The notes under the pieces are model-generated. The model worked only from the letters and a program-made list of their open reading frames with translations. It was not told the origin of the DNA and made no database searches. This document shows positions 4,647 through 32,159 of a stretch of 64,000 nucleotides of DNA, in pieces. Position numbers and translations under genes: made by a program. The stretch is taken from assembly GCA_046759765.1 (NCBI GenBank), contig JBHICV010000001.1:125-64124 (forward strand), given 5' to 3'. The DNA comes from Acidimicrobiia bacterium. Its GTDB lineage: Bacteria; Actinomycetota; Acidimicrobiia; Spongiisociales; CAZKJJ01. Numbering within the stretch: the stretch's first letter is position 1; each line of letters begins with the position of its first letter.

Positions 4647-4750
4647 TCTTGTGTCGTTTGAGCACCGTATCGGTAGTTGAACGTCACAAGAATCCCGGGC
4701 GAGATTTCTTGTGTCATTTGACGACCGTATGGGTAGTTGAGCGTCACAAA
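4647..4750. repeat. Two 44-bp imperfect-palindromic direct repeats at 60-bp period, between rpmB and the cold-shock gene
   Basis: ttcttgtgtcgtttgagcaccgtatcggtagttgaacgtcacaag at 4647-4690 and ttcttgtgtcatttgacgaccgtatgggtagttgagcgtcacaaa at 4707-4750. The outer arms CTTGTGTC/GTCACAAG are inverted repeats. Confidence 0.7.
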
Positions 4751-4775
4751 GACGGGGGCGACTACGCTCGGAGGC

Positions 4776-4988: not shown

Positions 4989-5027
4989 TCCGACCGTTAT
5001 AGTCCTCGCCAAAGCGAAGGAGGGTTC

Positions 5028-6343: not shown

Positions 6344-6353
6344 GGGAAAGCTC

Positions 6354-11978: not shown

Positions 11979-13592
11979 TTAATCCTCCAGAAGTACGTCG
12001 GCGAACTGATCGCGTACGACTTTCTTGTCGAACTTCCCAGTGCCGGTCTTGGGGATCTCGTCGGTGAACTCGATACGATCCGGCAACCACCACTTGGCGA
12101 CCAATCCTCCTAGGTGTTCGCTCAGATCGGCCTCTGTGACTTCAGCTCCCGCCCGCGGTACCACCACAGCCAGTGGTCGCTCTTGCCACTTGACGTGCTT
12201 GACAGCGATCACCGCCGCCTCAGCGACGTCAGGATGGGCCATGAGCGCGTTCTCGAGATCGAGCGAAGAGATCCACTCCCCTCCCGACTTGATGACGTCC
12301 TTAGCCCGATCGGTGATACGAATGTATCCCTCAGGTGTGATCTTGCATACGTCGCCGGTCCGCAGCCAGCCGTCAACGAACGAGTCCGGGCTGCGAGGGT
12401 CACGCAGATACTCGGCCGCGATCCAGGGGCCCCTGATCAGCAGCTCCCCAAAGGCCTCACCATCCTGAGGCAACTCATTGCCCTCTTCATCGACGATCTT
12501 CACTTGCAGGCCCATGATCGGCAGACCTGCCGTCTCGAGGAAGTCCAGCCTGCGCTCGAAGTCCCATTCGGCTGCCTCCGGCTTGAGCTTCGCCACCGAG
12601 GCGATTGGGTTCGTCTCGGTCATCCCCCAGCCCTGAATCACTTCAAGCTCTCGGTTGCGCCAGAACCAGTCGATCATCGCCCGTGGCACCGCCGAGCCCC
12701 CACACAGGAACGCACGGATGGACGAGGTATCTGCCTCCGGGTGCTCGATCAGGTACTGCTGGATTCCGAGCCAAACAGTCGGCACTCCGGCCGAGAAAGT
12801 CACCCTCTCGGTTTCGAATAGCCGCAGCAGTCCTTCGGGCGACAGGTCTGGCCCGGGATACGTGAACTTCGCCCCCGCGGCGGTGCCCATGTACGGATAG
12901 CCCCACGCCGCGGCGTGGAACATCGGTACTACCGGCAGGATGTTGTCGTCCGCCGAGATGGCGATGTTGGCGAGGTTGGAGATGGTGTGTATGTACGTCG
13001 ACCGCTGGGTATAAGCGACCCCCTTGGGGTTGCCCGTGGTCCCGGACGTGTAGCAGTACATCATCGGTGAGCGCTCGTCGAGGGGCGGCCAGGTTGCCTG
13101 GGGCTCAACCCCGTCGATGAGGTCTTCATAGGCGATGGCGTTGGGAAGATCGACCTCCGCGCTCTCACCCATGACGACATAGGCCTCGACGTCGGGGAGG
13201 TCGGGAGCGATGCGGGAGACGAGCGGCACCAAATCTGGGTCGACGAAGATCACGCGGTCTTCGGCGTGGTTGGCGATGTAGGTCAGCTGGTCCGGAAAGA
13301 GCCGTATGTTGAGTGTGTGGCAGACGCGGCCCGTGTTGGCAGTGGCCCAGTAGATCTCATGGTGGCGCTGGTTGTTCCAGGCGAACGTTCCGACCACCTG
13401 TCCCTCTTCGATGCCGAGCCGATCCCGGAGAGCGGCCGCCAAACGCCGCACCCGCTCATCCGTGTCGGCGTAGGTCGTCCGCTTGATCGACCGATCCGCT
13501 TCCACGGATACGATCTCCTGGGACGGATATATCCGGACCGCGTTGTCGTAGAGAGTGGACAGCAAGAGCGGAAAATCCATCATGTGCGCCAT
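11979..13592 (-). CDS. fadD: Long-chain fatty-acid--CoA ligase (AMP-dependent synthetase)
   Basis: 537 aa with AMP-binding motifs YTSGTTGNPKGV, GWGMTE and the C-terminal ...IPKTGTGKFDKK. Confidence 0.85.
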   Translation of the reverse strand: MAHMMDFPLLLSTLYDNAVRIYPSQEIVSVEADRSIKRTTYADTDERVRRLAAALRDRLGIEEGQVVGTFAWNNQRHHEIYWATANTGRVCHTLNIRLFPDQLTYIANHAEDRVIFVDPDLVPLVSRIAPDLPDVEAYVVMGESAEVDLPNAIAYEDLIDGVEPQATWPPLDERSPMMYCYTSGTTGNPKGVAYTQRSTYIHTISNLANIAISADDNILPVVPMFHAAAWGYPYMGTAAGAKFTYPGPDLSPEGLLRLFETERVTFSAGVPTVWLGIQQYLIEHPEADTSSIRAFLCGGSAVPRAMIDWFWRNRELEVIQGWGMTETNPIASVAKLKPEAAEWDFERRLDFLETAGLPIMGLQVKIVDEEGNELPQDGEAFGELLIRGPWIAAEYLRDPRSPDSFVDGWLRTGDVCKITPEGYIRITDRAKDVIKSGGEWISSLDLENALMAHPDVAEAAVIAVKHVKWQERPLAVVVPRAGAEVTEADLSEHLGGLVAKWWLPDRIEFTDEIPKTGTGKFDKKVVRDQFADVLLED

Positions 13593-13672
13593 GGGTGCCT
13601 CCTGAGGCGGCTCGGCGCCATCCTACGCACGGTGCGAGTTGTCAGTAATCAGTTCTCAGTGCCTCCCCCTAA

Positions 13673-13696
13673 CCCCCTCCCGCATGCGGGAGGGGG
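13673..13696. promoter_or_regulatory. Perfect 24-bp palindrome CCCCCTCCCGCA|TGCGGGAGGGGG upstream of fadD
   Basis: Exact inverted repeat about 80 nt upstream of the fadD start and downstream, in the minus sense, of the sRNA-like unit 1. No flanking T-tract, so it looks more like an operator or structural element than a terminator. Confidence 0.4.
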
Positions 13697-13787
13697 AATC
13701 GGCGGCGTAGCCGGCGTTCGTAGGGGGAGGTGGCCCGGAGGGCCGGAGGGGGTTAACTGACAGAACTGACGACTGAAACTCCCCCAA

Positions 13788-13929
13788 TGAGAAAACCCCG
13801 AGGGAGCCGAAACCCTCTCGGGGCTTTCCTCTCGATCCAGACTCCACCCCGAAGGGTAGTCTCCGAACCGAAACCCGAATAAGTCTCTCGACTTATTCGA
13901 CGCCACTATGGGGTTGCCCCCGTAGCGGT
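13788..13929 (-). ncRNA. Candidate structured small RNA, copy 1 (own promoter and intrinsic terminator)
   Basis: Minus strand: -35 TTGACG (13964-13959), 17-nt spacer, -10 TATGTT (13941-13936). The 3' end is the GC hairpin CCCCGAGAGGGTTTCGGCTCCCTCGGGG followed by TTTTCTCATT. Internal hairpins include CGAAUAAGUC/GACUUAUUCG and a CCC-UUCG-GGG tetraloop. Confidence 0.4.
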
Positions 13930-14087
13930 GCAGAGAACATAAGTGATCACCCCAAGCCCGTCAAACCAGACACGAGGAAAGTTTTCGCGAGAAAACCGCC
14001 AGTTATCAGTGATCCGTCATCGGTTTTCAGCATTCAGAGAACGCTGGGCGGCTGAAGACTGAGAACTGACATGGGAAACTGCAGGAA

Positions 14088-14230
14088 TGAGAAAACCCCG
14101 AGGGAGCCGAAACCCTCTCGGGGCTTTCCTCTCGATTCAGACTCCAGCCCCGAAGGGTGGTCTCAGAACCGAGACCCGGATAAGTCTCTCAACCTATCCG
14201 ACTCCGCTATGAGGTTGCCCCCTTAGCGGT
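14088..14230 (-). ncRNA. Candidate structured small RNA, copy 2
   Basis: Same promoter (TTGACG 14265-14260, -10 TATGTT 14242-14237) and terminator as copy 1. Stems differ from copy 1 by compensatory changes: CGGAUA/UAUCCG versus CGAAUA/UAUUCG, and CCGCUA/UAGCGG versus CCGCUA/UAGUGG (G-U wobble only in the minus-strand sense). Confidence 0.4.
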
Positions 14231-14367
14231 GGAGAGAACATAAGGCGTCACCGCAGGCCCGTCAAACCAGAAACCAGGAAAGTTTTCGCGGGCAAATAGC
14301 GGTCAGCTGACACCTGAAAGCTCTTTTAAATTGCATCCATGTCATTCGCATCCCGTATGCTCTTGGT

Positions 14368-15162
14368 ATGACGTTGGAGAACCTCTCACCGTCCCGGGCC
14401 GCGGACTTCAAATCATGTCCACAGCTGTTCAGGTTCCGCGCCATCGATCGTCTGCCGGAGCCCCCGACCTCCCATCAAGCGCGGGGAACGACCGCTCACT
14501 TGGCCCTGCAAGAGCTATTTGATCTACCGGCCACAGAGCGGACCCCCCACCGCTTGCACGAGCTTTTTCGCGAGGCCTGGGCCTCTTTGCGCCTCTCAGA
14601 AGAGTTCGCCGGCCTGTTTGATGACGTAGAAGCCGAGCGCGAGTGGGGTCTGGAGAGCCTGGCGCTCCTTTCTAACTACTTCTCGGTGGAAGACCCGGCG
14701 CAAGTCGAGCCCCGAAGCCGTGAGTACGACATGACCGAGGATCTGGATGGCATTGTTATCCGCGGCATTCTCGACCGAATCGACGAGCTGCCGGACGGCA
14801 ACCTCATCATCACCGACTACAAGACGGGCAAGCCGCCCCCGGAGCGCTACGCGTTGTCCTCGTTCTTCGCCTTGAAGATCTACGCCTTGCTCATCCGCAA
14901 GCAGACGGGACGCACCCCCATTGAGCTGCGGCTCCTGTATTTGAACGGTCCGGCCCTTTATCGACTGTCAATCTCCGACGCCCAGCTCGACGGGATGGAG
15001 CGCCAGCTCCGGGCACTATGGCAAGCCATCAACCGGGCGATCGAACGCGATTTCTTCCCCCCGCGGGCGGGGCCTCTGTGCAACTGGTGCTCCTTCCAGG
15101 AGATCTGTCCGGCTTGGACGGAGTTGCCCGTGCCCGCACTCGCCGGTGCTGCTAGCTCCTGA
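14368..15162 (+). CDS. PD-(D/E)XK nuclease family protein (RecB-like/Cas4-like with C-terminal Cys cluster)
   Basis: 264 aa with the ITDYKTGK nuclease motif and C-terminal CNWCSFQEIC cysteines typical of Cas4/AddB-type Fe-S nuclease domains. Confidence 0.7.
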   Translation: MTLENLSPSRAADFKSCPQLFRFRAIDRLPEPPTSHQARGTTAHLALQELFDLPATERTPHRLHELFREAWASLRLSEEFAGLFDDVEAEREWGLESLALLSNYFSVEDPAQVEPRSREYDMTEDLDGIVIRGILDRIDELPDGNLIITDYKTGKPPPERYALSSFFALKIYALLIRKQTGRTPIELRLLYLNGPALYRLSISDAQLDGMERQLRALWQAINRAIERDFFPPRAGPLCNWCSFQEICPAWTELPVPALAGAASS

Positions 15163-16446
15163 TCACGGATAGACGCCGCGGACCAGCTTGGCGGCCGCCA
15201 CCCGCCTGATTCCCTTGATGAGGGCCGCCGTCCGCATATCGGTACGCTCCTGCTTAGAGACCGCGACCACTTCATCAAAGGCCCTCGAGAGGATCTCACG
15301 TAATCGTCCGACGATCTCGTTCTCAGACCAGAAGTAATTCTGCAGGTCTTGGACCCACTCGAAATAGGAGACCGTGACACCGCCGGCATTGGCGAGCACA
15401 TCCGGAACCAGGAAAACTCCTCTATCCCGGAGTATCTCGTCTGCTTCGAGCGTGGTGGGGTTGTTGGCAGCCTCAACAATCAGCTTGGCCTTGATTCGGT
15501 CCGCGTTGGCCTTGGTGATGACCCCTTGAACCGCGGCCGGAATAAGCAGGTCGCAAGGGAGCTCGATCAGCTCCTCGTTGTCGACCTCCTCGGCATCCGG
15601 GTATCCCCGGAGGTAGGTCTGGTGGTCGACCCAGTCTGCAAGAGCCACGACGTCCAACCCCTCGGGGTTGTAGAGGCCGGTGGAGATGTCGGAGACGCCC
15701 ACAACCTTCAGCCCGATCTCGGTAGCTGCAATCGCGGCATATCGGCCCACATTCCCGAACCCGTGAATTACAACACGCATGCCTTCGAGTGGAAGTCCGG
15801 CCTGGCCGGCGGCAGGAGGAACGAGCGTTATCACGCCACGACCTGTAGCCTCGCGCCGAGCAACCGAGCCTCCGAGGGCCGGCGGCTTGCCGGTCACCAC
15901 GGCGGGAACCGAGTGGCCGGCGTGTTGGCTGTATGTGTCCATTATCCAGGCCATGGTCTGTTCGTTGGTGCCCATGTCCGGCGCGGGAATGTCCTTGTTC
16001 GGGCCGATGAACTGGATGATCTCGGCGGTGTATCTACGCGTCACTCTCTGGGCTTCTGCCCGGCTCAGCGAGAGGGGATCGACGCGGACGCCACCTTTGG
16101 CGCCACCAAAAGGGAGCCCGACTATCGCGCATTTCCAGGTCATGAGCATGGCGAGAGCCGCCACTTCTCCGAGGCTCACATCCGGCGCGTACCGGATGCC
16201 GCCTTTCGTCGGCCCCATAGTGAGGACGTGCTGCACGCGATAGCCGTACAGCGTGTCGACGTCTGAGTAGTCGTCGCGACGGAAGGGGAACGTCACGATG
16301 GTCGATCGCTGAGGCCGTCGCAGCCGCTCGGCAACGTTGTCGTCGAGGTTGATCAGCTCAGCTACATGCTCGAACTGCGCCACCGCCTCCCGGTACATGG
16401 GAGATTCCCACTCCCGGTCGACGTCGAGGGTCCTTTCCAAGGCCAT
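15163..16446 (-). CDS. gdhA: NAD(P)-specific glutamate dehydrogenase
   Basis: 427 aa with the Glu/Leu/Phe/Val dehydrogenase active-site region KGGIRYAPDV...GLPFGGAKGGVRVDP and a Rossmann GFGNVG. Confidence 0.9.
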   Translation of the reverse strand: MALERTLDVDREWESPMYREAVAQFEHVAELINLDDNVAERLRRPQRSTIVTFPFRRDDYSDVDTLYGYRVQHVLTMGPTKGGIRYAPDVSLGEVAALAMLMTWKCAIVGLPFGGAKGGVRVDPLSLSRAEAQRVTRRYTAEIIQFIGPNKDIPAPDMGTNEQTMAWIMDTYSQHAGHSVPAVVTGKPPALGGSVARREATGRGVITLVPPAAGQAGLPLEGMRVVIHGFGNVGRYAAIAATEIGLKVVGVSDISTGLYNPEGLDVVALADWVDHQTYLRGYPDAEEVDNEELIELPCDLLIPAAVQGVITKANADRIKAKLIVEAANNPTTLEADEILRDRGVFLVPDVLANAGGVTVSYFEWVQDLQNYFWSENEIVGRLREILSRAFDEVVAVSKQERTDMRTAALIKGIRRVAAAKLVRGVYP

Positions 16447-16468
16447 TCGCGATCATCACAATCTAACT

Positions 16469-16954
16469 GTGCGCACAGGACAACCAGGGGATAGAGATCC
16501 TCCGACCCTATACACGATTGGCCTCGGCGATCGGAGCTTCTCGAAGCTCGAGCGGATGCTCAGCGAACACGCCGTTACGACTGTTGTCGACGTCCGATCC
16601 GAGCCGGAACCGAACGCGGGAGAGACGAGCCTGGCCGAGGAGTGTCGGATAGTCGGCCTCGGATACGTTTGGATGGGCGACCGTCTCGGAAGCCGTCCAC
16701 GCCATCCGTCGCTGCTGGGTACGGACGGTGAGCCCAATTGGCCCGCCGTGGTCGCCGCACCCGCCTTTCGCGCCGGAATAGGAGAGCTGAAGACTCTGGC
16801 CACCCAAGGGCGTGTTGTCGTCCTCTGTACGGAGGAATCGCCCGAGGAGTGTCACCGGTCCCGTATTGCCTCTGAGCTCGAGGCCGAAGGAATCGACGTG
16901 CTACACATCGTCGGTGGGGGTCTACGGAGACACCAACCGTCGTTTGACATCTGA
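16469..16954 (+). CDS. DUF488 family protein
   Basis: LYTIGLGDRSFSKLERMLSEHAVTTVVDVRSEP...YVWMGDRLG matches DUF488 (YTIGHS...F...L....I..VVDVR..P.S). The start is placed at GTG 16469 to avoid overlap with gdhA and remains uncertain. Confidence 0.5.
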   Translation: MRTGQPGDRDPPTLYTIGLGDRSFSKLERMLSEHAVTTVVDVRSEPEPNAGETSLAEECRIVGLGYVWMGDRLGSRPRHPSLLGTDGEPNWPAVVAAPAFRAGIGELKTLATQGRVVVLCTEESPEECHRSRIASELEAEGIDVLHIVGGGLRRHQPSFDI

Positions 16955-17106
16955 GAGTTCTTGTCACAGTCGGGGGGTACGGTGACAACATGAAGCTCGA
17001 AGAAGCTCTCCGTAGGGCCGGGGTGTCGTTCATCGTTGTGTTCGACGGCCCCCCCGAAGACTGTCCACTGGCCGAAGCAGAGCAAACTGATCGGGCCGCC
17101 TGAGAG

Positions 17107-20082
17107 GTGTCGGACAACGCGATCGGGCCGATGGACTGGACTCGGGCCGTTGCCGACACCGACGGTCAGCAGCTAGTTCTGGCCGGGCCGGGAGCAGGCA
17201 AAACCGAGTTCCTCGTCCGCCGCGTCGCCTTTTTGATCGAGGCCGACCTGGCCGAGCCAAGCGAGGTTCTCGTGCTGGCTTTTTCACGCCGGGCAGCCGC
17301 CGAATTGCGATCCCGGGTAGAGGACAAGCTCGGTCGGTCGACGCTCCAGATTCCGGCTTCGACTTTTCATTCGTTCGCCTATCGGCTGCTGGAGTTCGTC
17401 GGACCCCACAAGGTTGGTTGGTCGCGCCTGCCCAACATCCTCACCGGCCCGGAGCAGATCACGTTCGTCGGCTCATTGCTCGAGGGCGAGAGTCCCGAGG
17501 AATGGCCTCCGGCCTACCGCGGCCTGCTCGGCACCCGGACGCTGGCCGAGGAGGTCACCGAGTTCATCCTCCGGGCCAACGAGAGCCTCATCGACGAGTC
17601 ATCCTTACGGGAGCTCGCGGCCAACCGAGCCGACTGGAGGGTGCTTCCGGAGTTCTCGGTCCGCTACAGCAGGGCGTTGGAAGAGGAGCATCGAATTGAC
17701 TACGGAACGCTCCAGACGACCGCCGCTCGGCTGCTAGAGCAGCGCGACATACGGCGGGGCATCGCCGATGACTACCGCTATGTCCTCGTCGACGAGTACC
17801 AGGACACGACCCGGGCCCAGGCGCGCCTCCTTGAACTGGTCAGCACCGAGGGAAATCTCACTGTGGCCGCCGATCCCAACCAGTCGATCTATGGCTTCCG
17901 GGGGTCCCATCCGGAAAACGTCGACCGGTTCGCCGAGAAATACCCGGACACCAAGCGAATCTTCCTCGAACAATCGTTCCGAGTTCCCGAAACTATCCTC
18001 GCCGCCGCCGACAGGATCAGGTCGGCCTCGCCCGCGTTGGCAACGAACCTCGAAGTCCGGGCCGCTGCGCACTCGGGATCCGTGGAGGTTCGTGTCTTCG
18101 ATCAACACTCTCACGAAGCCGAATGGATCGCGTCCGAGGTGCACCGACTGCATCTTTTCGAGGAAATCCCGTTCAGCCGCATCGCGGTCCTCGTGCGCAC
18201 CAAACGCCGATTGCTCACCGAGCTGTCGAGAGCCTTGGCCCGCAGGGAAGTCCCCCATGACGAGCCGCAGTCGCGCCTTGCCGATACCGCCGCCGTCCGG
18301 GCCCTTCTGGATTGTTTGGAAGTATGCGACCTCGAAGCCAAGGCTGATCGTGCCTCCCACCCAGAGGCAGCGATTCTTCGCCAGTCGGCCGACGCGGCCA
18401 TGGCTCGCATCTTGCTCGGCCCGCTCTTCGAGACGCCGTTGGGGCTTCACCGGGATCTACTTCGGCAGCGGAGGAGTACCGGCGCCTCTTGGGCGGACGT
18501 TGTGGGGAAGTTGCTCCCCGATGGGCAGGGGCTCTCTGATCTTCTGTCCGACGACCGCTGGATAACTGCACCAGCGACCGAAGGCTTCTGGACTTGGTGG
18601 ACGAGGCTTCCGCAACTCGTCCCATTCGTCGAACGTGGCGACACCGCTGAGGATCGCGCGGCGTGGAGCTCACTGGCACAGGTTCTCGACCGCATCACGG
18701 AGCGCCAACCGGCGACCACGCTCCTCGACTATGCCCGGCTCGTCTCGGAGGAGGACTTCGAGGCAACACCGTTGCTCAGCTACCGAAAGGTCGACGAGGA
18801 CCGCGTCACTTTGGCCACGCTCCATCAGGCCAAGGGACTGCAGTTCGACGTCGTCTTTGTCGCCGACGCTGTCGAAGGCGTGTTCCCGGACCTACGTCGG
18901 GAGCGCTCGATACTGCAGTCTCACCTGCTGACAGAACAGACGCATACGGGAACCGAAGCGACGAAGGCGCGGCTGGCCGAGGAAATGCGGTTGGCCTATG
19001 TAGGCATGACGCGGGCCAGAAGAAGGGTGATCTGGACCGCGACAATGGCCGGCATCGAGGAGGGTTCGGCAAGACCCAGCCGATTCCTGCCGCTGGTGGC
19101 CGGGGTGGAAACCATTGCCGAGCTGTCCGGTCCTCAGTCCGCCGAGATCCCCCCCGTTACTCCCCGCGCGGCCGAAGCCGCCATGCGGCGCGCTCTGCGC
19201 GACCCTGCTGAGCCTTCTGCTAAGCGGCTCGCCGCGACTGCCGTCCTGGCCTCGTCGGTGGGGCTGCGCCCGCCGTTGGAGTTCGCGGGCGTCAGGCCTC
19301 CTGGACCCGACCGGGGTCTCACCGACGTCGATGTTCGCTTGTCACCGAGCCAGGCTGATCTGTACGAGCGATGCCCGCGCCGTTACGCGCTCTCCCGGCG
19401 GCTTCGCGTGGGTGAGGAGGAGAATGTATACGCTCGTTTCGGGTCTCTGATTCACGAGGTACTCGAGGCCGTCGAGCGGACCGCCATGGCACGCGGCGAC
19501 CAGCACGGATCGCTGGAGGAGGCGGTGGCCGAGCTGGATCGGAGGCTGCCCGACTACGAGTTCGGCTCGCCGGGTCCGACCCGAGCATGGCGCCGTCGAG
19601 GCATCGATTGTCTCGAGAGTCTGTACACGCAATGGCCCGACGGGCGCGCGAGGCCGATCTCCCTCGAACGGGAGCTCCGGCTCGAGCTGGAAGGTACCCG
19701 CTGGCTGGGCTTCGCCGACCGCATCGAGGAGCTCGAAGGCGGCGCCCGCCGGGTGGTTGACTACAAGACCAGCAAGCGCGTTCCGCCGGTCTCAGAGCTC
19801 GCACTCCAGCTCGGCTTCTACCTCCTTGCTTCGGCAGCTGATCAGGACCTCGGTCCCGACGTCACCGAAGCCCAGGCGTGGTACCCGCTCGGCGGCAAGA
19901 AAGTGACGGTGCGAGAGCTCCCGACCTCGGAGCTACCGGACATTCGAGCGAGGCTTGTTGCTATTGCCGACGGTATTAGGAGGGAGAACTGGCAGCCCCG
20001 TCCGCACGAGGGCTGCGAGCGCTGCCCAGTTCGGATCCTCTGCCCGGAGTGGCCTGAAGGACAGGAGGCATTCGTCAGATGA
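17107..20082 (+). CDS. UvrD-type helicase with C-terminal RecB-like nuclease (AdnA-like subunit)
   Basis: 991 aa with N-terminal Walker A AGPGAGKTEFLV, UvrD motifs (DEYQDT, TLHQAKGLQFDVVFV), the C-terminal PD-(D/E)XK motif VVDYKTSK and the Cys cluster CERCPVRILC. Stop overlaps the next start (ATGA). Confidence 0.7.
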   Translation: MSDNAIGPMDWTRAVADTDGQQLVLAGPGAGKTEFLVRRVAFLIEADLAEPSEVLVLAFSRRAAAELRSRVEDKLGRSTLQIPASTFHSFAYRLLEFVGPHKVGWSRLPNILTGPEQITFVGSLLEGESPEEWPPAYRGLLGTRTLAEEVTEFILRANESLIDESSLRELAANRADWRVLPEFSVRYSRALEEEHRIDYGTLQTTAARLLEQRDIRRGIADDYRYVLVDEYQDTTRAQARLLELVSTEGNLTVAADPNQSIYGFRGSHPENVDRFAEKYPDTKRIFLEQSFRVPETILAAADRIRSASPALATNLEVRAAAHSGSVEVRVFDQHSHEAEWIASEVHRLHLFEEIPFSRIAVLVRTKRRLLTELSRALARREVPHDEPQSRLADTAAVRALLDCLEVCDLEAKADRASHPEAAILRQSADAAMARILLGPLFETPLGLHRDLLRQRRSTGASWADVVGKLLPDGQGLSDLLSDDRWITAPATEGFWTWWTRLPQLVPFVERGDTAEDRAAWSSLAQVLDRITERQPATTLLDYARLVSEEDFEATPLLSYRKVDEDRVTLATLHQAKGLQFDVVFVADAVEGVFPDLRRERSILQSHLLTEQTHTGTEATKARLAEEMRLAYVGMTRARRRVIWTATMAGIEEGSARPSRFLPLVAGVETIAELSGPQSAEIPPVTPRAAEAAMRRALRDPAEPSAKRLAATAVLASSVGLRPPLEFAGVRPPGPDRGLTDVDVRLSPSQADLYERCPRRYALSRRLRVGEEENVYARFGSLIHEVLEAVERTAMARGDQHGSLEEAVAELDRRLPDYEFGSPGPTRAWRRRGIDCLESLYTQWPDGRARPISLERELRLELEGTRWLGFADRIEELEGGARRVVDYKTSKRVPPVSELALQLGFYLLASAADQDLGPDVTEAQAWYPLGGKKVTVRELPTSELPDIRARLVAIADGIRRENWQPRPHEGCERCPVRILCPEWPEGQEAFVR

Positions 20083-23000
20083 GGCCGACTGTGGAGCAGC
20101 AGGCGATTACGAGCTATCCCCTGGGGCCTCTTCGTGTGGAGGCCGGGGCGGGGACCGGCAAGACGACCACACTGGCTTGGCGAGTCGCAGATCTGGTCAA
20201 GCTGCACAACATTCCGCCCCAAGCAATCCTCGGTATCACGTTCACGAACAAGGCCGCCGAGGAGCTCGCCGACCGGATCCACTCGGAGCTCGGGTTGCAG
20301 CTGAGCCAAGAGGTCGAGGTGCATACCTATCACGGCTTCGCCAATCAGCTAGTACAGGAATTCGGTCCGCTACTAGGTATCGAGCGCAGCTTTTCCGTTA
20401 TCACCCCCACCTTCGCCCGTCAGCTATTGCTGGATCAGGTGGCGGTGGGTTCATTCGACGAGCTGGATCTCACCTTTCCGCGCGGGATCGTGGCCCGTCT
20501 CATCAAGCTCTCCTCGGAACTGAGTGATCACCTCCGGACCGCGGATGACCTGCTTTCGGCCTCAGCCCTCCGCTCGGAGATCCCCTGGCCCGCTCGGGCC
20601 GAGCTCGCGACCCTTCTCAAGAGGTACGAAGCCAGCAAACGCCGACTGGACCTCCTCGATTACGGCGATCTGATAAGAGTCGCCCACCACTTGGTTGCCG
20701 ACCATCCGGAAGTCGCTGATCGGGTGCGCAGCCGGTATCAAGCGGTGTTGTGTGACGAGTACCAGGACACGAATCCCGCCCAGCGCGAACTCTTGCGAGC
20801 ACTATTCGGAGCGGGGTTTCCTCTGACTGTGGTTGGCGATCCCAACCAAACGATCTACGAGTGGCGAGGAGCGACACAAGAGAACTTCGCGGCTTTCCCC
20901 GTGCACTTCCCGAGCGCCGACGGCACACCCAGTGACACCAAACCGCTGTCACTCAACCGCCGATCAGACAGGCGGATCATCAAGGTTGCCAACGCGGTCG
21001 CCGGGAAAATCGGCTCCACCTCCCGGCTACGCCCTCGTCCCGGCGCGGGGCCCGGCCACGTCGAGGCTCGTTGGTACTCGACCGCACTAGACGAGGCGCA
21101 CGGCATCGCGGAGGAGATCGGGCGGCTCCACTCCGAAGCGGCGACCCAATGGCGGGACGTGGCCGTTCTGTTTCGGAAGAACAAAGACATATCACTCGTG
21201 AGGGATGCGCTCTCGGACCATGACATTCCGGTCGAGGTTGCCAACCTCGGCGGATTGCTGGGCATCCCTGAGGTGGTCGAGCTTCACGCCTGGCTTCGAG
21301 TGATCCGAGATCCCCGCGATGGAGTGGCGTTGACTCGGATCCTCACGGGTACCCGCTTTCGGCTGGGCCTTGGCGACCTGCGACCACTGGCCTTCTGGGC
21401 GCGCCGCCGCGACGGCCGAGGTGATGAGCCTGAGCTCGATGCTCCCACCCACAGCCTGATAGAGGCGATCGAGAATGTGTCTGAGCTGGACATCAGAGAC
21501 GAAGCGAGAGCCCCGCTGGAGGACTTCCTTCGCATCTACCGGGGCCTTCTGGCTGATGCGCAGGCGGTCAGCCTGGTCGAGCTTTGTAGGAGGATCCTCG
21601 ACGCCATCTCAGCCTGGGACGAGATAGAAGCGATGCCGGACGCCGGGCGTCTGTCCGCCCGACTCAACCTCTATCGTTTTCTCGACCTGGCCGAGGACTG
21701 GAGCCCGCTCGAGGGACGGCCGAGCCTTTCGGCCTTCCTCGACCATCTGTAGCTGATGCAGGAGGAAGAGGCCGAGGATCTAGACGCGGCTCGCCTGTCG
21801 AATGAAGACGCGGTGGCTTTGCTGACTGTTCACCGAGCCAAGGGACTCGAATGGGACGTGGTCTTCGTACCGGCCCTGTATCGAGGCAACTTCCCTTCCT
21901 ACGCGCGCCTCCACGAGGACCCGTTCAGGTTCCCGCAGATCCTCCCGTACGAGCTGCGGCTCGACCGCGACAGCTTGCCGCCAATCACGGACACCATGTC
22001 CGAGCAGATGCGAAAGGAGGTTCTGGGAAAGGGCCAAACCACGCAGGAGTGGCGAACGGCATATGTGGCCGTCACGAGGGCCCGTTCCCGGCTATACGCC
22101 TCCGGTGCTTGGTGGGTCGGATCGCCCGCCCCACAAAAGAATCCGAGCCGCCAGAGCGATCTCTTCGAGCTCATCGCAGGCCACGCCGACAAGGTCGTTG
22201 TTGCCGAGAAGCCGGGCCCCAGGCCGAAGCGAATTCGGCGCGAGTCAAACGGCGGTGCCCCCGACCCGGTCTTCCCGGACGGCTGGCAGAGCGGCTTGCG
22301 AGCCACCCTTGCCGATCCGTCATGGCCGGCCGATAGGGCCGCGAAGCTGGGCGTAAGCGACCTCTTCGAGCAAGAGCGCCAGCAGCTGCTCGACGTGGTG
22401 GCTCAAGCTACCCAACCCGCAGAGGCTTCTCCGACCTCGGAGAAAGTTGAGACCTCGGCAACCGGACTGGTCACATACGCCACGTGCCCTCGTCGCTTCT
22501 ACTGGTCGGAGATCGACCGGCTCCCCCGCCGGTCAACCAAGGCGGCGAGACGAGGAACGCTGATCCACCGCCGCATCGAGCTCCACAACAGCGGGATGGT
22601 GCCCTTCGAGGAGTTGGAAGCCGACCTTTACGACCGCACCACAGACGAAGGGGTGAGTGGAGGCCGAGGTGATCCGTTCGAAGCCTTCATGGGGTCACGC
22701 TTTGCGGAAGTGCTACCCCGTTGGGTCGAGATACCGTTCGAGCTCCAGCTAGGACCCTCCACTCGGGTGCGGGGCCGGATCGACGCCATCTACACGAACG
22801 GAACCACCGAGGTTGTCGACTTCAAGACCGGCAAGGGACCGAGCAGCCGCGCGGCCCGAGTGCAGCTGGAGGCTTACGGGCTGGCTGTGGCCGAGACGGG
22901 CTTGGCCGAGCCGCCGTTCCAGTTGACGTTCGCCTTCCTCGGGCAGGGAGTCTCGGAGGAGTCCGAGCAAGCGGACACCGCGTGGCTCGGCAACGCCCGC

Positions 23001-23135
23001 AGTCATCTGACCAAGTTGACCGAGGCCATCCAAGCCCGCAACTACGACGCCACCCCCTCCTACAGCTGCCACTCCTGCGACTTCCTACGTTTTTGCGAGC
23101 CGGGCCGGGACTGGGTAGACCTGCACCCGAGCTGA
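20079..23135 (+). pseudogene. UvrD-type helicase-nuclease (AdnB-like subunit) interrupted by in-frame TAG at 21750-21752
   Basis: ORFs 20079..21752 and 21756..23135 are in the same frame. They carry GAGTGKTT Walker A, DEYQDTN, then after the TAG ...TVHRAKGLEWDVVFVP (motif V/VI), the C-terminal VVDFKTGK nuclease motif and CHSCDFLRFC cysteines. Together they would give about 1017 aa. Confidence 0.65.
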
Positions 23136-23156
23136 AGGACATAGGCTCTCTTGTTA

Positions 23157-23615
23157 CTACTCGGAAACCTTTCCGCCCTCCACGTCGATCACGAGCGTCA
23201 CTGGGCCGTCGTTGGTCAGGTCCACCCTCATCCGGGCGCCGAAAGAACCCGTCACAACATCGAGATCCTCGGCCTGTAGCCGATCCACCAACTCCAAGAT
23301 GAGCTCCTCGGCGGTCTCCGCGGGTGCCGCCCTGGTGAACGAAGGTCGCCGGCCCTTTCGTACGTCGCCGTACAGCGTGAACTGACTCACCACCAGAACG
23401 GAGCCGCCGACGTCGGAAACGGACAGATTCATCTTGTCGTCTTCGTCACCGAAAATCCGGAGCCCGGCCAGCTTTTGGGCCAAGACCTCAGCATCCCCGG
23501 AGTCATCGCCGTCGGTGACGCCGACCAGAACACACAGACCCGGACCGATTTCGGAGACCGTCTCTCCATCAACCGCTACGGACGCCCGGGAGACCCGCTG
23601 GACCACCGCGCGCAT
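23157..23615 (-). CDS. dtd: D-aminoacyl-tRNA deacylase
   Basis: 152 aa; MRAVVQRVSRASV...SQFTLYGD...GRRPSF matches Dtd signatures. Confidence 0.85.
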   Translation of the reverse strand: MRAVVQRVSRASVAVDGETVSEIGPGLCVLVGVTDGDDSGDAEVLAQKLAGLRIFGDEDDKMNLSVSDVGGSVLVVSQFTLYGDVRKGRRPSFTRAAPAETAEELILELVDRLQAEDLDVVTGSFGARMRVDLTNDGPVTLVIDVEGGKVSE

Positions 23616-24169
23616 CAGTTGTCGGACGGATCAAGCGGGTACGTGGAGTAAAGCGCCAGCTCGCCTTCCTGCCTCCGCAGTACTTGCCGCCAGAGCTCTT
23701 CGGGCTGTCGCGTGAAAGGGTCGGACTCTCTGCCATCGACCACGAACCAGGCCGGCTCATCGAGCTCGGCATCGAGCTGGCCGCTCCCCCAGCCCGCGTA
23801 CCCGGAGAAAATGCGGACCTCTGCGACCGGCCCGTACTTCTCCGGGTCGAGAGAGAGATCCAACAGACCGACGGAGTTCGTCACCGGCATCCAGGAAGGA
23901 TGGCCTACCTCGCCTTCGGCGCGGGCCATTCCTACGGCCACCTCGCGCTGTACGGGTCCGCCGATAAACACCAGCTCGGGATCACCAACGAGGCCGGCCC
24001 AGGCCGGCAAGGGCTCTCGTGCGTCGGCATCTGTGGGATGGTTGAGCACCACGCCCACCGTCCCATCCGGTCCGTGTTCGACCACCAAGACCACGCCCCG
24101 CACAAAGTTGGGATCCATCAGGTTTGGAGCCGCAACGAGGAGTCGACCGGGTTCCACGACGGTGTCCAT
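23615..24169 (-). CDS. YqgE/AlgH family protein (UPF0301)
   Basis: Internal start MDTVVEPGRLLVAAPNLMDPNFVRGVVLVVEHGPDGTVGVVLN gives about 184 aa, typical of DUF179. Its stop overlaps the dtd start (ATGA). The long N-terminal extension of the 303-aa ORF is rejected. Confidence 0.7.
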   Translation of the reverse strand: MDTVVEPGRLLVAAPNLMDPNFVRGVVLVVEHGPDGTVGVVLNHPTDADAREPLPAWAGLVGDPELVFIGGPVQREVAVGMARAEGEVGHPSWMPVTNSVGLLDLSLDPEKYGPVAEVRIFSGYAGWGSGQLDAELDEPAWFVVDGRESDPFTRQPEELWRQVLRRQEGELALYSTYPLDPSDN

Positions 24170-24221
24170 CCTCGGCGATGGTACTGAGCCTGCCCGTCGG
24201 GCAATGTGACAGAATCGCTCG

Positions 24222-26510
24222 ATGGAAGCCCGCGACCGGGATACCCAGCATCCGGAAGTCTTTCTCCTGGACGCCTCCAGTTCCTTCGAAAGAGACTTGC
24301 TGGCGCGCGAGGCGGAGCGCCGCCAGGGTGAGAGCGCCGCCGAGGCACTGACCATTGCCTCGTCCCGGCGGCGGAGAAAGCGAAGGCACCGGACCACGCA
24401 GCTGGAGGCTCGTGCCCGATCCGACGATAACCCCGCCTTTGTACCGCTCCGAGTCGTTTGGCTGGCCCCGGAGCGCCACGGCCGCCGGTCATTTCGAGTC
24501 AGCGACTTTCTTCGCTTCGGCGACATCCGCGACCCGGATCCCGTGCGTGCTCGCTGGCTTTATGCCCGGCGACCTGAGCTCGTTCGGATTGTGGACGGAG
24601 CATCCGCGACGGCAGCTGAGCTAAAAGACCGCTGGGCAGCCTCGGGCGAGCGCATTGCCCTGGGGGACTACGTCGAGCGGCAGGCCCACCTGGCTCTGGA
24701 ACGTGCCGAGCGTGAAGTTCGAGGGGCCAGGTACAAGGTGCCCAGGTTCATTCATGAGGAGGTTCTTGCCCAGCCGTCGCTGGCCGAGGAGCTGAGTCGG
24801 CTCGCCGAGGGCAACGACGTCGCCTCGGTCAGGAAGCAAGCCACCGGCTACCTGCGCGAGATCGCGGCTTTACCCAACACCTACGTGATCGACGTGGCAG
24901 TCAGCCTCGTCCGCTGGCTCTACCGACGCGGCTACCGGGACCTGCACTACAACGAAGAGGTCTTTGCCCAGCTCTCGCGCCTGGCCAGTGAGCACCCTCT
25001 GGTGTTCCTGCCGTCACACCAGTCGAACCTCGACCACCTGATCCTCTCCTATTTGCTGTGGGACAACGAGCTCCCTCCGAACCACACGGCAGGCGGGGTG
25101 AATTTGAGCTTCTTCCCGGTCGGGCCGCTGCTACGCCGCACCGGCGTGTTCTTCATTCGCAGGTCCTTCCGGGAGAACCCCGTCTACAAGGCAACGCTCC
25201 GGGCCTATCTCGACTATCTGATCGAGAAGCGGTTTCCCCTCGAGTGGTACCTCGAAGGAGGCCGGTCGAGGTCCGGCAAGCTGCGAGAACCTCGCTACGG
25301 GATGCTGTCCTATGTCGCCGACTCGTTGCGTCGGCGGCGCAGCGAAGATATCTACCTGGTTCCGGTCTCGATCGCCTATGACCAGATCCAGGACGTCGGG
25401 GCTCACGCCGCCGAGCAGCGAGGAGAGCCCAAGGAGAAAGAGAGCGCCTCCTGGCTCGTTCGGGCCGTACGTTCGCTCCACGGTCGGTTCGGCAGCATCT
25501 ATGTGCGATTCGGCGAACCACTGTCGATGGCCAAGGAGCTGTCCCGAGATCCAGACCCGGCCGATCGCGTCTTGGAGACCCAGAAGCTCGCCTTTGAGGT
25601 GATGGTCCAAATCCAGCGCGTCACCCCCATCACCGAGCCGGCGCTGGTGGTGTCGGCCTTGCTCTCGAACGGCACCCGGGCAAGGACGGCGGCGCAGCTG
25701 CAATCCGATGTGGCGGAGCTGGACACCTACGCTCGGATCCGCCAGCTGCCGTTGGCCCCATTTTTTGACCTCGGTGGATGGGAGCAGGTGGCCGGTGTGC
25801 TCGAGCTTCTCGCGGGCAGAGGGCTCATCGCGACGTTCAACGAGGGACCGGAGGCCGTTTACCGCATCCATCCGAAGCGTCACCACGAAGCCGCGTATTA
25901 CCGGAACACGATCGTCCATCACTTCGTCGCCGGCGCCGTTTCCGAGGTCGCGCTGCTGGCCGGATCGCATGCCGAAGGCGACCCAGAGGACAGGCTGCAG
26001 GAGGCCGTCCTAGCTTGGCGGGACCTGCTGAAGTTCGAGTTCTTCTTCCCGGAGAAGTCGGCCTTTTGGGAGGAGGTCCGAGCCGAGCTGGAGATCGGCA
26101 TGCCAGGCTGGGCGAACGCTATCGGCGAGGGAGGACGGGCAACGGAACAGTTGCTTTCGGACTCGGTACCAATACGCGCCCACTGGGTCCTGAGACCGTG
26201 GATCGATGGATACTTCGTCACTGCTACCAAGCTGACGCAGGAGAGGGCGGCTATCGACGAGGAGGCCTTCATCAGGAACTGCCTTGGTCTCGGGCGCCAA
26301 TACCTTCTGCAGGGTCGGATCGCCAGCCCGGAATCGGTATCGAGGGTTGTGTTCGAGGGAGCAATGATGTTGGCGGCGAACCGAGGTTTGCTGGACCGGG
26401 AGAAAGGACTCACGGATCGCCGCAAAGCGTTCGCCGACGAGGTCAATCGCGCTCAGGGACGCCTTCGGGTAATCGATGAGATTGCCCGCCGACAGAGAGC
26501 CGGCCTGTAG
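24222..26510 (+). CDS. plsB: Glycerol-3-phosphate acyltransferase (PlsB-like)
   Basis: 762 aa with the acyltransferase H(X)4D motif PSHQSNLDHLIL and PlsB-like length. Terminates with TAG. Confidence 0.75.
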   Translation: MEARDRDTQHPEVFLLDASSSFERDLLAREAERRQGESAAEALTIASSRRRRKRRHRTTQLEARARSDDNPAFVPLRVVWLAPERHGRRSFRVSDFLRFGDIRDPDPVRARWLYARRPELVRIVDGASATAAELKDRWAASGERIALGDYVERQAHLALERAEREVRGARYKVPRFIHEEVLAQPSLAEELSRLAEGNDVASVRKQATGYLREIAALPNTYVIDVAVSLVRWLYRRGYRDLHYNEEVFAQLSRLASEHPLVFLPSHQSNLDHLILSYLLWDNELPPNHTAGGVNLSFFPVGPLLRRTGVFFIRRSFRENPVYKATLRAYLDYLIEKRFPLEWYLEGGRSRSGKLREPRYGMLSYVADSLRRRRSEDIYLVPVSIAYDQIQDVGAHAAEQRGEPKEKESASWLVRAVRSLHGRFGSIYVRFGEPLSMAKELSRDPDPADRVLETQKLAFEVMVQIQRVTPITEPALVVSALLSNGTRARTAAQLQSDVAELDTYARIRQLPLAPFFDLGGWEQVAGVLELLAGRGLIATFNEGPEAVYRIHPKRHHEAAYYRNTIVHHFVAGAVSEVALLAGSHAEGDPEDRLQEAVLAWRDLLKFEFFFPEKSAFWEEVRAELEIGMPGWANAIGEGGRATEQLLSDSVPIRAHWVLRPWIDGYFVTATKLTQERAAIDEEAFIRNCLGLGRQYLLQGRIASPESVSRVVFEGAMMLAANRGLLDREKGLTDRRKAFADEVNRAQGRLRVIDEIARRQRAGL

Positions 26511-30449: not shown

Positions 30450-32159
30450 CTAGGAGGCGGCTACCGCATCTTCAATAGCCCTCGTCAACTCCCCCGGCTC
30501 GAAGGGCTTAGAGACAACGGCGTCCATGCCCGCCTGCGTGCATTGACTCTCTACTGAGGCAATATCGTCAGTCGTCGTAGCGATGATCGGAGTGTGGGCA
30601 TTGTCTTCAGTCGATCGGATCTGTCGAGTGGCTTCCACACCGTTCAGCCCGGGCAACCCGAGATCCATGAGAACGAGATCAAATCGAAACGCATCCAGCG
30701 CCTCGATTGCCTCCTGCCCCGTTACAACCAAGAAAACCGAATGGCCGCGCGTCTCCAGCATTCGTTTGGCGGACATTCGGTTCGTAGGACTGTCGTCGAC
30801 TACGAGGATGTCGAGTCGGCTTCTCCGCTCCCTGAGCCAGTGGCGGGTAACCAGCGTGGTCAGGTCGATGGGTAGCGCGCCGCCGAGCACCGCGTTTACA
30901 GCTTCCTCCAACTCTTTGCCCTTCACGGGTTTGGTCAGGTAGCCGGCAACTCTCAGCTCCCGACATCTGGCGCCGTCTCCTCGCTGGCCGACGGCCGTGA
31001 TCACGATGACATGGGTTCCGTCGTGCTCCGGTTTGTTTCGAATCTGCTCCGCGCCTGCGAGCGGATCGCCTCGGGTATCGAGGATGACTGCCGCGTATGG
31101 CGCGTCCCGGTCGCGAGCCTCCGAGAGTCCCTCGAGGCATTCGGTGTGTGAGGAAGCAGTGGTCACCGCCAGGTCAGAGTTTCGGAGCATGCCACGGATC
31201 GTCACGCGGTTGAGGTCGCTGTCGGCAACAACGAGCACAGGGAGACCCTCTATGCCCCTTTCGCGTTGGAGCTTTGGCTCCGGGACGGGAGGCACGGACA
31301 GTCCAAGTGGAACCTCGACACGGAAGCGAGAGCCGCCTACTGGCGCGCTTTCGACCGAGATCTGTCCCCCCATCCGCTCTACGAGCTGTCGTGATATCGC
31401 CAGGCCGAGACCGGAGCCTCCATATAGCCTGGCCGTCCCGCGGGACCCTTGGGCATATTCATCGAATAGCTGCGCGAGGTCCTCTCCAGAGATTCCGATC
31501 CCGGTGTCCTCCACTATGAAAGTGAAGTCGGCCGTTTCGTCTCCTAGGTCGGCCGTCACCCGGACCGTAACCGAGCCTTCCTCGGTGAATTTGATCGCAT
31601 TGGAGACGAGGTTCGAAATGATCTGGCGGAGCCTTCCGGGATCGCCAGAGACGTAATCGGGCATGCCCGAGGCGAGGTCGAGCGTCAGCACCAGTCCTTT
31701 CTCGTCTGCCCGGGGAGTGAATACTGCGACTGCATCGGCCAGCGTGTCCCGAACGCTGAACGGAATGTCATCGAGCTCCAACCGGCCGGCCTCGATCTTG
31801 CGTAGATCGAGAAGGTCGTTGACGAGCGTCATCAGCGCCTCCCCAGAGGCGCTCACCAGCTCTAGGTACTCACGCTGGTCAGGCGTGAGGCGAGTGTCCA
31901 TCGCCACCTGGGTCATGCCGAGAATGCCGCTCAGCTGAGTTCGGATCTCGTGGCTCATGTGGGCGAGGAACCGCGACTTCGCCTCCGAACCCGCTTCGGC
32001 GAGCTCTTTCTGGCTCTCTACCTCGGCGAGTCGAAGGCGCGCTTGCCCCAGCTCACCTCGCAGGCCCTCGATGTCCACCTGCGCGAGCTGCTCGACGGGA
32101 TTAGGCGCGGGCTCTGACATGAGTCGCTCCTCAGCATCATCGGCGGGTTCGAGACGCAA
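30450..32159 (-). CDS. Hybrid sensor histidine kinase/response regulator (HisKA-HATPase_c-REC-REC)
   Basis: H-box MSHEIRTQLSGILGM and the N/G boxes (NLVSNAIKF, GGSGLGLAIS), followed by two receiver domains (LVVADSD...; ILVVDDSPTNR...MDLGLPGLNG). Confidence 0.8.
   Translation of the reverse strand: MRLEPADDAEERLMSEPAPNPVEQLAQVDIEGLRGELGQARLRLAEVESQKELAEAGSEAKSRFLAHMSHEIRTQLSGILGMTQVAMDTRLTPDQREYLELVSASGEALMTLVNDLLDLRKIEAGRLELDDIPFSVRDTLADAVAVFTPRADEKGLVLTLDLASGMPDYVSGDPGRLRQIISNLVSNAIKFTEEGSVTVRVTADLGDETADFTFIVEDTGIGISGEDLAQLFDEYAQGSRGTARLYGGSGLGLAISRQLVERMGGQISVESAPVGGSRFRVEVPLGLSVPPVPEPKLQRERGIEGLPVLVVADSDLNRVTIRGMLRNSDLAVTTASSHTECLEGLSEARDRDAPYAAVILDTRGDPLAGAEQIRNKPEHDGTHVIVITAVGQRGDGARCRELRVAGYLTKPVKGKELEEAVNAVLGGALPIDLTTLVTRHWLRERRSRLDILVVDDSPTNRMSAKRMLETRGHSVFLVVTGQEAIEALDAFRFDLVLMDLGLPGLNGVEATRQIRSTEDNAHTPIIATTTDDIASVESQCTQAGMDAVVSKPFEPGELTRAIEDAVAAS

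Follow-up and report, generated by a model that had tools for sequence, protein, structure and literature searches.

AdnAB, a helicase-nuclease built as a heterodimer, serves to unwind and resect double-strand DNA breaks in Actinobacteria. Trp325 of AdnB is the ratchet pawl of motif III, and the iron-sulfur cluster of AdnAB has been described in AdnA only (PMC13000450). AdnB mutants without ATPase activity phenocopy the adnAB deletion or are worse, and Mycobacterium smegmatis is viable without AdnAB, by means of RecFOR-dependent recombination (PMC5314763).

The window analysed here (the whole stretch of DNA under study, 64 kb) is from a metagenome-assembled genome of an uncultured member of Acidimicrobiia, the host being an actinobacterium, as for mycobacterial AdnAB. 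It carries two adjacent, co-oriented paralogues, each with an N-terminal UvrD-like SF1 motor and, at its C-terminal end, a RecB-like PD-(D/E)XK nuclease identified with Pfam, which is the architecture of AdnAB. The TGA of adnA overlaps the ATG of adnB (ATGA, 20079-20082), and adnB is interrupted by an in-frame amber codon. GenBank lists two ordinary coding sequences at the split adnB, named 'ATP-dependent helicase' and 'PD-(D/E)XK nuclease family protein', with no pseudogene label. The features of the locus are as follows:

17107..20082, + strand: adnA-like gene, 991 aa, with Pfam domains UvrD-helicase, UvrD_C and PDDEXK_1 and a Cys4 signature in the nuclease; intact
20064..20068, + strand: GGAGG Shine-Dalgarno sequence, read from the sequence, 10 nt 5' of the adnB ATG
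20079..21752, + strand: first adnB ORF, ATG start, 557 codons and TAG, covering helicase domains 1A, 1B, 2B and part of 2A (GenBank MFQ5965993.1)
20145-20165, + strand: adnB Walker A, GAGTGKT, residues 23-29
20754-20768, + strand: adnB motif II, DEYQD, residues 226-230
20856-20873, + strand: adnB motif III, YEWRGA, residues 260-265, with the ratchet-pawl Trp
21726..21812, + strand: predicted short helix and unstructured acidic linker, from 2B to the return to 2A, containing the stop
21750..21752, + strand: in-frame amber codon in the sequence, codon 558 of adnB
21756..21758, + strand: ATG 3 nt past the stop, an ancestral Met codon and possible re-initiation codon
21756..23135, + strand: second adnB ORF, ATG start, 459 codons and TGA (GenBank MFQ5965994.1)
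21813-21866, + strand: adnB helicase motif V, in the second ORF
22044-22082, + strand: adnB helicase motif VI, in the second ORF
22452-23099, + strand: adnB PD-(D/E)XK nuclease, in the second ORF
22485-22487, + strand: adnB Cys803, in the second ORF
23067-23096, + strand: adnB CxxCx5C, in the second ORF

Both halves of adnB had chain B of the M. smegmatis AdnAB structures (PDB 6PPJ, 6PPR, 6PPU, 7SJR and 9NP6) as their best match (N half with 6PPR_B, E 4.2e-68; C half with 6PPU_B, E 2.6e-22), in agreement with the AdnB-like identity proposed in the initial annotation. The best PDB matches of the upstream ORF overall were UvrD and PcrA and, among the AdnAB chains, it scored better with chain A (4.9e-36) than with chain B (4.2e-27); the motifs GPGAGKT, DEYQD, DYKT and CERCPVRILC were found in it. 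The motor residues of AdnB (Walker A, motif II, and the Trp and Arg of motif III) are all present and are invariant in the family alignment, the Trp-Arg pair corresponding to Trp325/Arg326 of M. smegmatis AdnB, with which Walker A, DEYQD and the GRID...DFK nuclease site are also shared. The C-terminal PD-(D/E)XK/Cys4 nuclease described initially was recovered as a Pfam PDDEXK_1 match and a Cys4 motif. Its GRID (899-902), DFKT (914-917) and QLEAY (929-933) motifs align to GRID...DWKTG...QLAVY of M. smegmatis AdnB, and the four cysteines (C803, C997, C1000 and C1006) are invariant in 61 Acidimicrobiia sequences. This Cas4/AddB-type signature distinguishes the AdnB studied here from that of M. 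smegmatis, in which the first Cys is matched by an Asp and the aligned region stops short of CxxCx5C; the two proteins also differ in length (1018 aa here versus 1095 aa) and in the amber codon, which is located at the approximate equivalent of Asp638. AddAB and RecBCD likewise combine an SF1 motor with a PD-(D/E)XK nuclease, and models of AddA and RecB were matched weakly, but all the scores were far below the family cut-offs and both subunits here retain complete ATP-binding motifs, as in AdnAB. An AdnAB enzyme is characterised by forming a heterodimer with ATP-dependent 3'-5' translocation and double-strand-break resection activities.

The two ORFs had been described initially as a single gene split by an amber codon in the same frame, and the present analysis upholds this description. 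The sequence at the junction reads GAC CAT CTG TAG CTG ATG CAG GAG, and the translation of 20079-23135 has 1019 codons and one internal stop (...SLSAFLDHL*LMQEEEAEDLD...TVHRAKGLEWDVVFVP...). None of the 120 best orthologues listed is split: each is one protein of ~1010-1050 aa, and the stop falls without any gap in a single alignment column, as expected for a single gene of about 1018 codons. The Pfam UvrD_C profile is itself divided between the halves (positions 3-143 in the N half and 281-346 in the C half, followed by PDDEXK_1), as is the NCBIfam pcrA profile (8-530 and 537-583, respectively). This adnB thus lacks the one unbroken frame encoding a polypeptide of ~1000-1100 aa, owing to the TAG at codon 558. 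We also scanned all the stop codons of the window for sites with 120 stop-free, coding-like codons on each side, and 21750 and a few other sites passed. The sites at 39697 (SDR/MaoC), 53463 and 59252 are borders between different genes, that at 2428 is an antisense shadow opposite recG, and that at 53541, judged by its position only, is also an antisense shadow. The scan therefore yielded no second gene split by an in-frame stop in the 64 kb, and the adjacency of the two adnB ORFs is not due to chance, because the other passing sites are gene borders or antisense shadows.

The interrupted position is highly variable. In the 120 orthologues, the stop column contains D (50), A (21), E (16), S (10), R (5) and others; in the comparisons as a whole, the residues at this position are D, A, E, S, R, T, I, G, Q, Y, W and V. 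The comparison with orthologues proposed in the initial annotation revealed a sense codon at this position in the 120 listed proteins and in all of the fetched loci that could be aligned here, so the stop is not conserved in these relatives. The closest relative among the genome-contig matches listed (L006, 67% protein identity) has GCC (Ala) here, two steps from TAG, and the column is too variable for the ancestral codon to be inferred. At the column of the ATG at 21756, 64 of the 120 orthologues have Met and 52 have Leu. The stop was mapped, via an alignment (A2), onto the AlphaFold2 model of an orthologue (P0001), in which residues 555-567 form a helix and residues 568-583 a coil; the block pLDDT is 67-72 at the helix and linker, versus at least 90 in the flanking blocks. 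On this model, the stop is placed in a short low-confidence helix, just 5' of the unstructured acidic linker preceding motif V, and we can specify that motif V is the helicase motif directly downstream, a refinement of the earlier description.

Apart from the stop, adnB has no other damage: catalytic motifs, Cys4, codon usage and half-to-half divergence are all normal. Positions conserved in the family (at least 95%) are retained at 93 of 97 sites downstream of the stop and at 137 of 140 upstream. The ratio of C-half to N-half identity is 0.875, versus 0.896 +/- 0.023 in intact orthologues, and the codon-usage scores on the two sides of the stop are equal (0.225 and 0.223). Identity to the closest relative is 83.5% over the first 79 residues past the stop, versus 67.3% before it. 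Continued expression of the downstream half, through either re-initiation or read-through, would equally be expected to leave it undamaged. Ten neighbouring ORFs were scanned and their Pfam domains were complete, except for 16511-16855 (-), which has no Pfam match and was judged to be a spurious call rather than a real gene.

Independent sequence was available for the flanks. Logan contigs of SRR29324605 and SRR29324607 match 8.3 kb of flanking sequence in the window (99.97-100%, with two differences); they stop at 18452 and resume at 22963 or 23136, and the stop site lies in between. The search for a Logan contig corresponding to the 557-aa, 459-aa and 991-aa products or to a guessed edge-cut AdnA product yielded none, the metagenome contigs contained no match to a degenerate pattern of the DNA surrounding the stop, and the two run accessions gave no match in the literature. 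Relatives in the metagenome contigs had at most 58% identity, and neither these contigs nor the genome-contig matches listed included a conspecific genome or contig. Stop-spanning protein queries of 183 aa and 440 aa, in searches that favour matches of similar length, identified no near-identical fragment besides the window's own two proteins, and no intact allele of adnB on record. Four candidate recurrent splits were rejected: P0226 (L089), with a chimeric tail, P0245 (L092), a fold-back artefact, P0240 (L091) and P0232 (L090) all proved to be contig-edge, chimera, fold-back or frameshift artefacts, with adnA and adnB appearing as six ORFs in L090. A split near residue 558 is thus not conserved in the related genomes from which these candidate fragments were inspected.

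The in-frame TAG in an otherwise intact gene is the sole point in favour of TAG being a sense codon here, through reassignment or pyrrolysine, and this explanation is already close to refuted. Stop usage in the ORF-based gene calls is TGA 36, TAG 12 and TAA 7, the TAG figure including the adnB stop and one spurious call. The statement in the initial annotation that TAG is a genuine stop elsewhere holds for plsB, which ends in ...AGL-TAG, and for dtd; TAG ends about 10 of about 54 other genes, where domains and homologues end, including genes with a last Pfam domain finishing a few residues earlier, and in the hybrid kinase at 30450-32159 it lies 6 aa past a complete Response_reg domain. The code is therefore standard, and reassignment is as unlikely as was initially suggested. 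The adnB codon is the sole in-frame TAG in the window with coding sequence on both sides, and the residue concerned is neither conserved nor catalytic. A search of the 64-kb window for tRNA genes, suppressors included, as the initial annotation had recommended, found none. Leaky termination or suppression, in which a near-cognate or suppressor tRNA would yield some full-length AdnB, possibly enough if only small amounts of the enzyme are required, is somewhat less implausible, but we consider it very improbable. The position takes almost any residue, so any insertion would be predicted to give an active protein, and the base following the TAG is a C, the weakest termination context in work on E. 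coli. However, TAG-C is also found at four of the 11 normal TAG stops in the window, bacterial read-through at the basal level usually stays well under 1%, the lack of a suppressor tRNA gene in the window applies here too, and there is no RNA structure after the stop (fold of 21735-21860, z = +0.30), which is itself not conserved.

A further possibility, to which we give little credence, is a two-piece AdnB: ribosomes terminating at TAG would re-initiate at the ATG 3 nt further on, and the 557-aa and 459-aa products would assemble non-covalently with AdnA into an active enzyme, the N-terminal motor portion and the piece with motifs V and VI and the nuclease coming together across the linker that follows the break. 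It is slightly more doubtful still that the TAG is both real and fixed and that the organism lives on such an AdnB through re-initiation independent of a Shine-Dalgarno sequence. In its favour, the break falls, according to the structural model, directly before the unstructured linker. The downstream half shows no decay, but a very recent mutation predicts this as well. The crystal structure of PcrA, of the same helicase family, comprises separate chains, of 548 and 95 residues (PDB 2PJR; see also 1QHH), with a gap that phmmer places ~10-17 residues downstream of this stop. By analogy, the gap would indicate that the site tolerates a chain break, while being silent on whether separate pieces fold and find each other. 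The PcrA break is reportedly due to post-translational proteolysis of the folded protein and not to two translated polypeptides. In the window, stop-start coupling commonly does without a Shine-Dalgarno sequence: there are nine 4-nt gene overlaps, most without GGAGG, and the TGA-GGC-ATG at 39697 belongs to a genuine gene pair with the same stop-N3-ATG geometry as adnB. Against this, the ATG at 21756 is an ancestral codon (Met/Leu in 116 of 120 orthologues) rather than an evolved start, no Shine-Dalgarno sequence precedes it, and no relative is split, the candidate fragments being contig-edge or chimera artefacts. A sequencing, assembly or polishing error, with codon 558 being in truth a sense codon and adnB intact, deserves more weight than these readings, while remaining unlikely. 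The gene is flawless but for one codon, it comes from a metagenome-assembled genome, a sense codon results from seven of the nine possible single-base changes of TAG, and this variable position would tolerate any sense codon. Databases commonly contain broken adnB genes that stem from error-prone assemblies (L090, for example), with many short fragments on long contigs, but those cases are due to frameshift shredding or contig-end artefacts, unlike the clean substitution here. Moreover, real nonsense polymorphisms are a priori more frequent than random substitution errors that happen to create a stop in one of some 55 genes. Given that no other gene in the window is split, that the domains of the neighbours scanned are complete and that the flanks match the Logan contigs, a real base is favoured over an error.

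We therefore lean, with a little more than even confidence, towards a recent nonsense allele inactivating AdnB, in which the base is real and the product non-functional. There is one gene, with its stop at codon 558, a standard code and the rest of the gene intact; we infer from the evidence above that the TAG is a real base rather than an error, and that the AdnB product is non-functional. In the recent nonsense allele that we favour, an adnAB operon would have undergone a single, very recent nonsense substitution at codon 558 of adnB, a variable residue before motif V. Ribosomes using the standard code would end at the TAG and release a 557-aa fragment without helicase motifs V and VI and the entire nuclease domain. 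The allele would most likely be null, because translocation and recombination by AdnAB depend on the AdnB motor, and would thus represent the very first stage of a pseudogene, with break repair left to other routes, such as RecFOR. The amber-split adnB is an ordinary kind of event. It resembles the ordinary incipient pseudogenes of bacterial genomes and metagenome-assembled genomes in its lone stop, in the intact conserved gene, in not being shared by relatives, in the lack of a recoding signal and in the standard code, and differs from them in nothing save the coincidental ancestral ATG 3 nt on.

The two GenBank proteins should be read as one adnB with an internal stop. Mechanistically, the locus would be interesting only on the two-piece reading, which, if true, would provide a naturally split superfamily-1 helicase-nuclease subunit, made in one step by a point mutation thanks to the chance presence of an ancestral Met codon next to the stop. 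If the allele is real, the population, or part of it, is probably without AdnAB-dependent break resection, and the locus would provide a small data point on the dispensability of AdnAB in free-living Acidimicrobiia.

Direct reading of window positions 21741–21761 gave GAC CAT CTG TAG CTG ATG CAG, and the ORF listing placed the ORFs on either side of this TAG (21750–21752, codon 558 of adnB) in the same frame:
20079–21752 (+), first ORF, 557 aa
21756–23135 (+), second ORF, 459 aa
Their joint translation contained exactly one internal stop. The first ORF matched Pfam UvrD-helicase and positions 3–143 of the UvrD_C profile, which resumed downstream of the stop at positions 281–346 and was followed by PDDEXK_1. 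The NCBIfam PcrA model likewise ran from the first ORF (positions 8–530) into the second (537–583), and on sequence grounds each ORF makes up half of a single domain series. The single AdnB-like helicase-nuclease gene proposed in the initial annotation, with two same-frame ORFs divided by a TAG and a C-terminal PD-(D/E)XK/Cys4 nuclease, is thus borne out by these profiles, by the motifs and structural matches described below, and by the single-protein form of the 120 best relatives listed.

When all stop codons of the window were scanned, with 120 stop-free, coding-like codons needed on each side, 21750 was the only stop that split a gene. The stops at 39697 (SDR/MaoC), 53463 (sugar dehydrogenase/ATPase) and 59252 (alcohol dehydrogenase/transporter) were rejected as junctions of different genes, and those at 2428 (opposite recG) and 53541 (judged by position only) as antisense shadows. 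At 38842–40605 (−), short-chain dehydrogenase and MaoC-like hydratase genes lie in the same frame, divided only by TGA-GGC-ATG. We read them as two coupled genes rather than a split gene; the pairing is reminiscent of multifunctional enzyme type 2, a fused eukaryotic protein.

The best solved relative of both adnB halves was chain B of the Mycobacterium smegmatis AdnAB cryo-EM structures (E values of 4e-68 and 3e-22), consecutive parts of which they match. The upstream ORF (17107–20082, 991 aa) has the same motor-plus-nuclease architecture (Pfam) and was closer to chain A (AdnA) than to chain B; its TGA overlaps the adnB ATG, which is preceded by GGAGG 10 nt 5'. Given these chain matches, the shared architecture and the TGA/ATG overlap, the locus is, as judged from sequence, an adnA–adnB operon. 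No AdnB motif is missing: the motor has GAGTGKT, DEYQD, YEWRGA (which includes the pawl Trp), motif V (TVHRAKGLEW) and motif VI, and the nuclease has GRID...DFK and QLEAY. The sequence comes from a metagenome-assembled genome labelled 'Acidimicrobiia bacterium' (64,867-bp contig), for which GenBank annotates each half as a protein of its own (MFQ5965993.1 and MFQ5965994.1). This AdnB also carries a Cys-X(n)-CxxCx5C signature that is invariant across 61 Acidimicrobiia AdnB sequences. The cysteines of the two subunits are:
AdnB, Cys803 at 22485–22487 and Cys997/1000/1006 at 23067–23096, Cas4/AddB-type signature
AdnA, Cys756 and Cys970/973/979, within 17107–20082, Cas4/AddB-type signature
Both subunits have the four-cysteine signature, whereas the mycobacterial iron-sulfur cluster has been located in AdnA only (PMC13000450), and Asp occupies the position of the first Cys in AdnB of M. 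smegmatis.

A stand-alone PD-(D/E)XK (Cas4/AddB-like) nuclease of 264 aa with a C-terminal CxxCx5C is encoded at 14368–15162 (+), three genes upstream of adnA and ahead of glutamate dehydrogenase and DUF488 genes, in a stretch that aligns to L006, the closest related locus found. Between an acyl-CoA-synthetase-like gene and this nuclease gene an element of ~215 nt occurs twice in tandem (13785–14000 (−) and 14085–14301 (−); 86–89% identical, 300 nt apart), also found in L006 at 966–1180 (−). Its minus strand is predicted to form five stem-loops ending with a hairpin and a UUUUCUCAU terminator (−104.8 kcal/mol, z = −6.35). It is ~85% conserved in L006, versus 68–77% for flanking coding DNA, with compensatory changes at 5 predicted pairs, and no Rfam match was found. 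It is a candidate for a so far undescribed Acidimicrobiia small RNA.

Among database relatives, the 120 best listed were all single proteins of ~1010–1050 aa (one of 986), with at most 56% identity to the query. Aligned with these, the stop takes up a single column, without a gap, that is among the most variable of its region (D 50, A 21, E 16, S 10, R 5, also T, I, G, Q and Y); it follows the invariant Leu-557 and precedes a column with Leu in 82 of the 120. L006, the nearest relative among the matches listed (syntenic over 12688–21987; AdnB 67% identical), has GCC (Ala) at this codon. The Met two codons past the stop is, by its column (Met in 64/120, Leu in 52/120), ancestral. In the AlphaFold2 model of orthologue P0001 (mean pLDDT 88.8), the stop position falls within a short helix (555–567), followed by a 16-residue coil and the motif V strand; helix and coil blocks have pLDDT values of 67–72, versus at least 90 in flanking blocks.

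ORF-based gene calls in the window ended with TGA (36), TAG (12) or TAA (7), the TAG count including the adnB stop and one call later judged spurious. Three TAG termini are where expected: that of a hybrid kinase lies 6 residues past a full Response_reg domain, plsB ends ...AGL-TAG, and dtd ends at 152 aa, as called identically on Logan contigs (independent assemblies of SRR29324605 and SRR29324607). Since TAG ends these genes properly and no tRNA gene, suppressor or other, was found within the 64-kb window, TAG reassignment or pyrrolysine use was rejected, and we regard reassignment as extremely improbable. The initial annotation had likewise judged reassignment unlikely, citing plsB, and the use of TAG to end about 10 of about 54 other genes agrees with it. 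No RNA structure was detected downstream of the adnB stop (fold z = +0.30), and its TAG-C context is common to four ordinary stops in the window. By the alignments and these sequence features the stop is not conserved and is no recoding site, and it offers no evidence of an altered code.

Decay was measured as deviations at family positions at least 95% conserved. The query, the most isolated lineage of the orthologue set used, deviates at 3/140 positions upstream and 4/97 downstream of the stop (orthologue means 1.4 and 1.1). Its C-half/N-half identity ratio (0.875) is inside the orthologue distribution (0.896 ± 0.023), the first 79 residues past the stop share 83.5% identity with L006, and the score for codon usage is the same before and after the stop. 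Because conserved positions, identity ratio and codon usage show no decay, the stop is very young, not real, or harmless.

If it were an assembly error, the organism would have a sense codon here. Logan contigs cover 14107–18452, 22963–25782 and 23136–24236 and show two differences over 8.3 kb, and thus good base accuracy with some microdiversity; none spanning 21750 was found in our look-ups. The differences, both against SRR29324605 contigs, are at 16543 (G/A, spacer before the DUF488 gene) and 25779 (T/C, 3 nt from a contig end), probably strain-level polymorphisms. No intact near-identical adnB allele was found among the full-length matches listed or the fragment matches, nor any conspecific contig among the matches listed from genome and metagenome contig collections. 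Broken adnB genes occur often in databases; the ones inspected were frameshift-shredded long-read assemblies or contig-end artefacts, with no clean substitution among them. In one deposit series, the homologues on contigs L089 (6690–6872; GCA_044233465.1) and L092 (1–330; GCA_044232495.1) break near the same linker as the adnB stop, but these look like assembly artefacts: L089 continues from ...SLDAFLD into 156 nt of unrelated sequence up to the contig end, and L092 opens on an inverted copy (fold-back) of its own adnB. On a third contig, L090 (481 kb), the homologues of adnA and adnB are fragmented into six ORFs (243–6503), which looks like indel errors and illustrates this background. In our window, the domains of the neighbouring genes scanned are complete, bar one spurious short ORF, and there is no other in-frame stop. 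Because the inspected breaks are not clean substitutions and the window is otherwise intact, we rate a real nonsense allele as much more likely than an error, which we consider unlikely.

A harmless stop could reflect re-initiation at the ATG 3 nt downstream, yielding a two-piece AdnB broken beside a flexible linker. PcrA entries 2PJR and 1QHH are likewise separate chains, the inter-chain gap of 2PJR lying ~10–17 residues downstream of the adnB stop in phmmer alignments. This ATG has no Shine-Dalgarno sequence, but stop-start coupling without one is common in the window, where a natural gene pair shares the geometry (TGA-N3-ATG). We find the two-piece enzyme improbable. Low-level read-through, giving active protein with any inserted residue, seems more improbable still, and neither has positive support beyond plausibility.

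We lean towards a true nonsense allele of recent origin that leaves AdnB null. The finding is a known system, adnAB, with an ordinary single nonsense codon under the standard code. The observation and interpretation of the initial annotation, which named a pseudogene, a sequencing error and read-through as alternatives, are confirmed. The actinobacterial enzyme AdnAB resects double-strand breaks, and its translocation and in vivo function need the AdnB motor (PMC5314763; PMC13000450). Termination at the TAG would give a 557-aa fragment lacking the nuclease as well as motifs V and VI, and by default this dead motor would leave AdnAB inactive, a condition that M. smegmatis lacking AdnAB survives via RecFOR-dependent recombination (PMC5314763).
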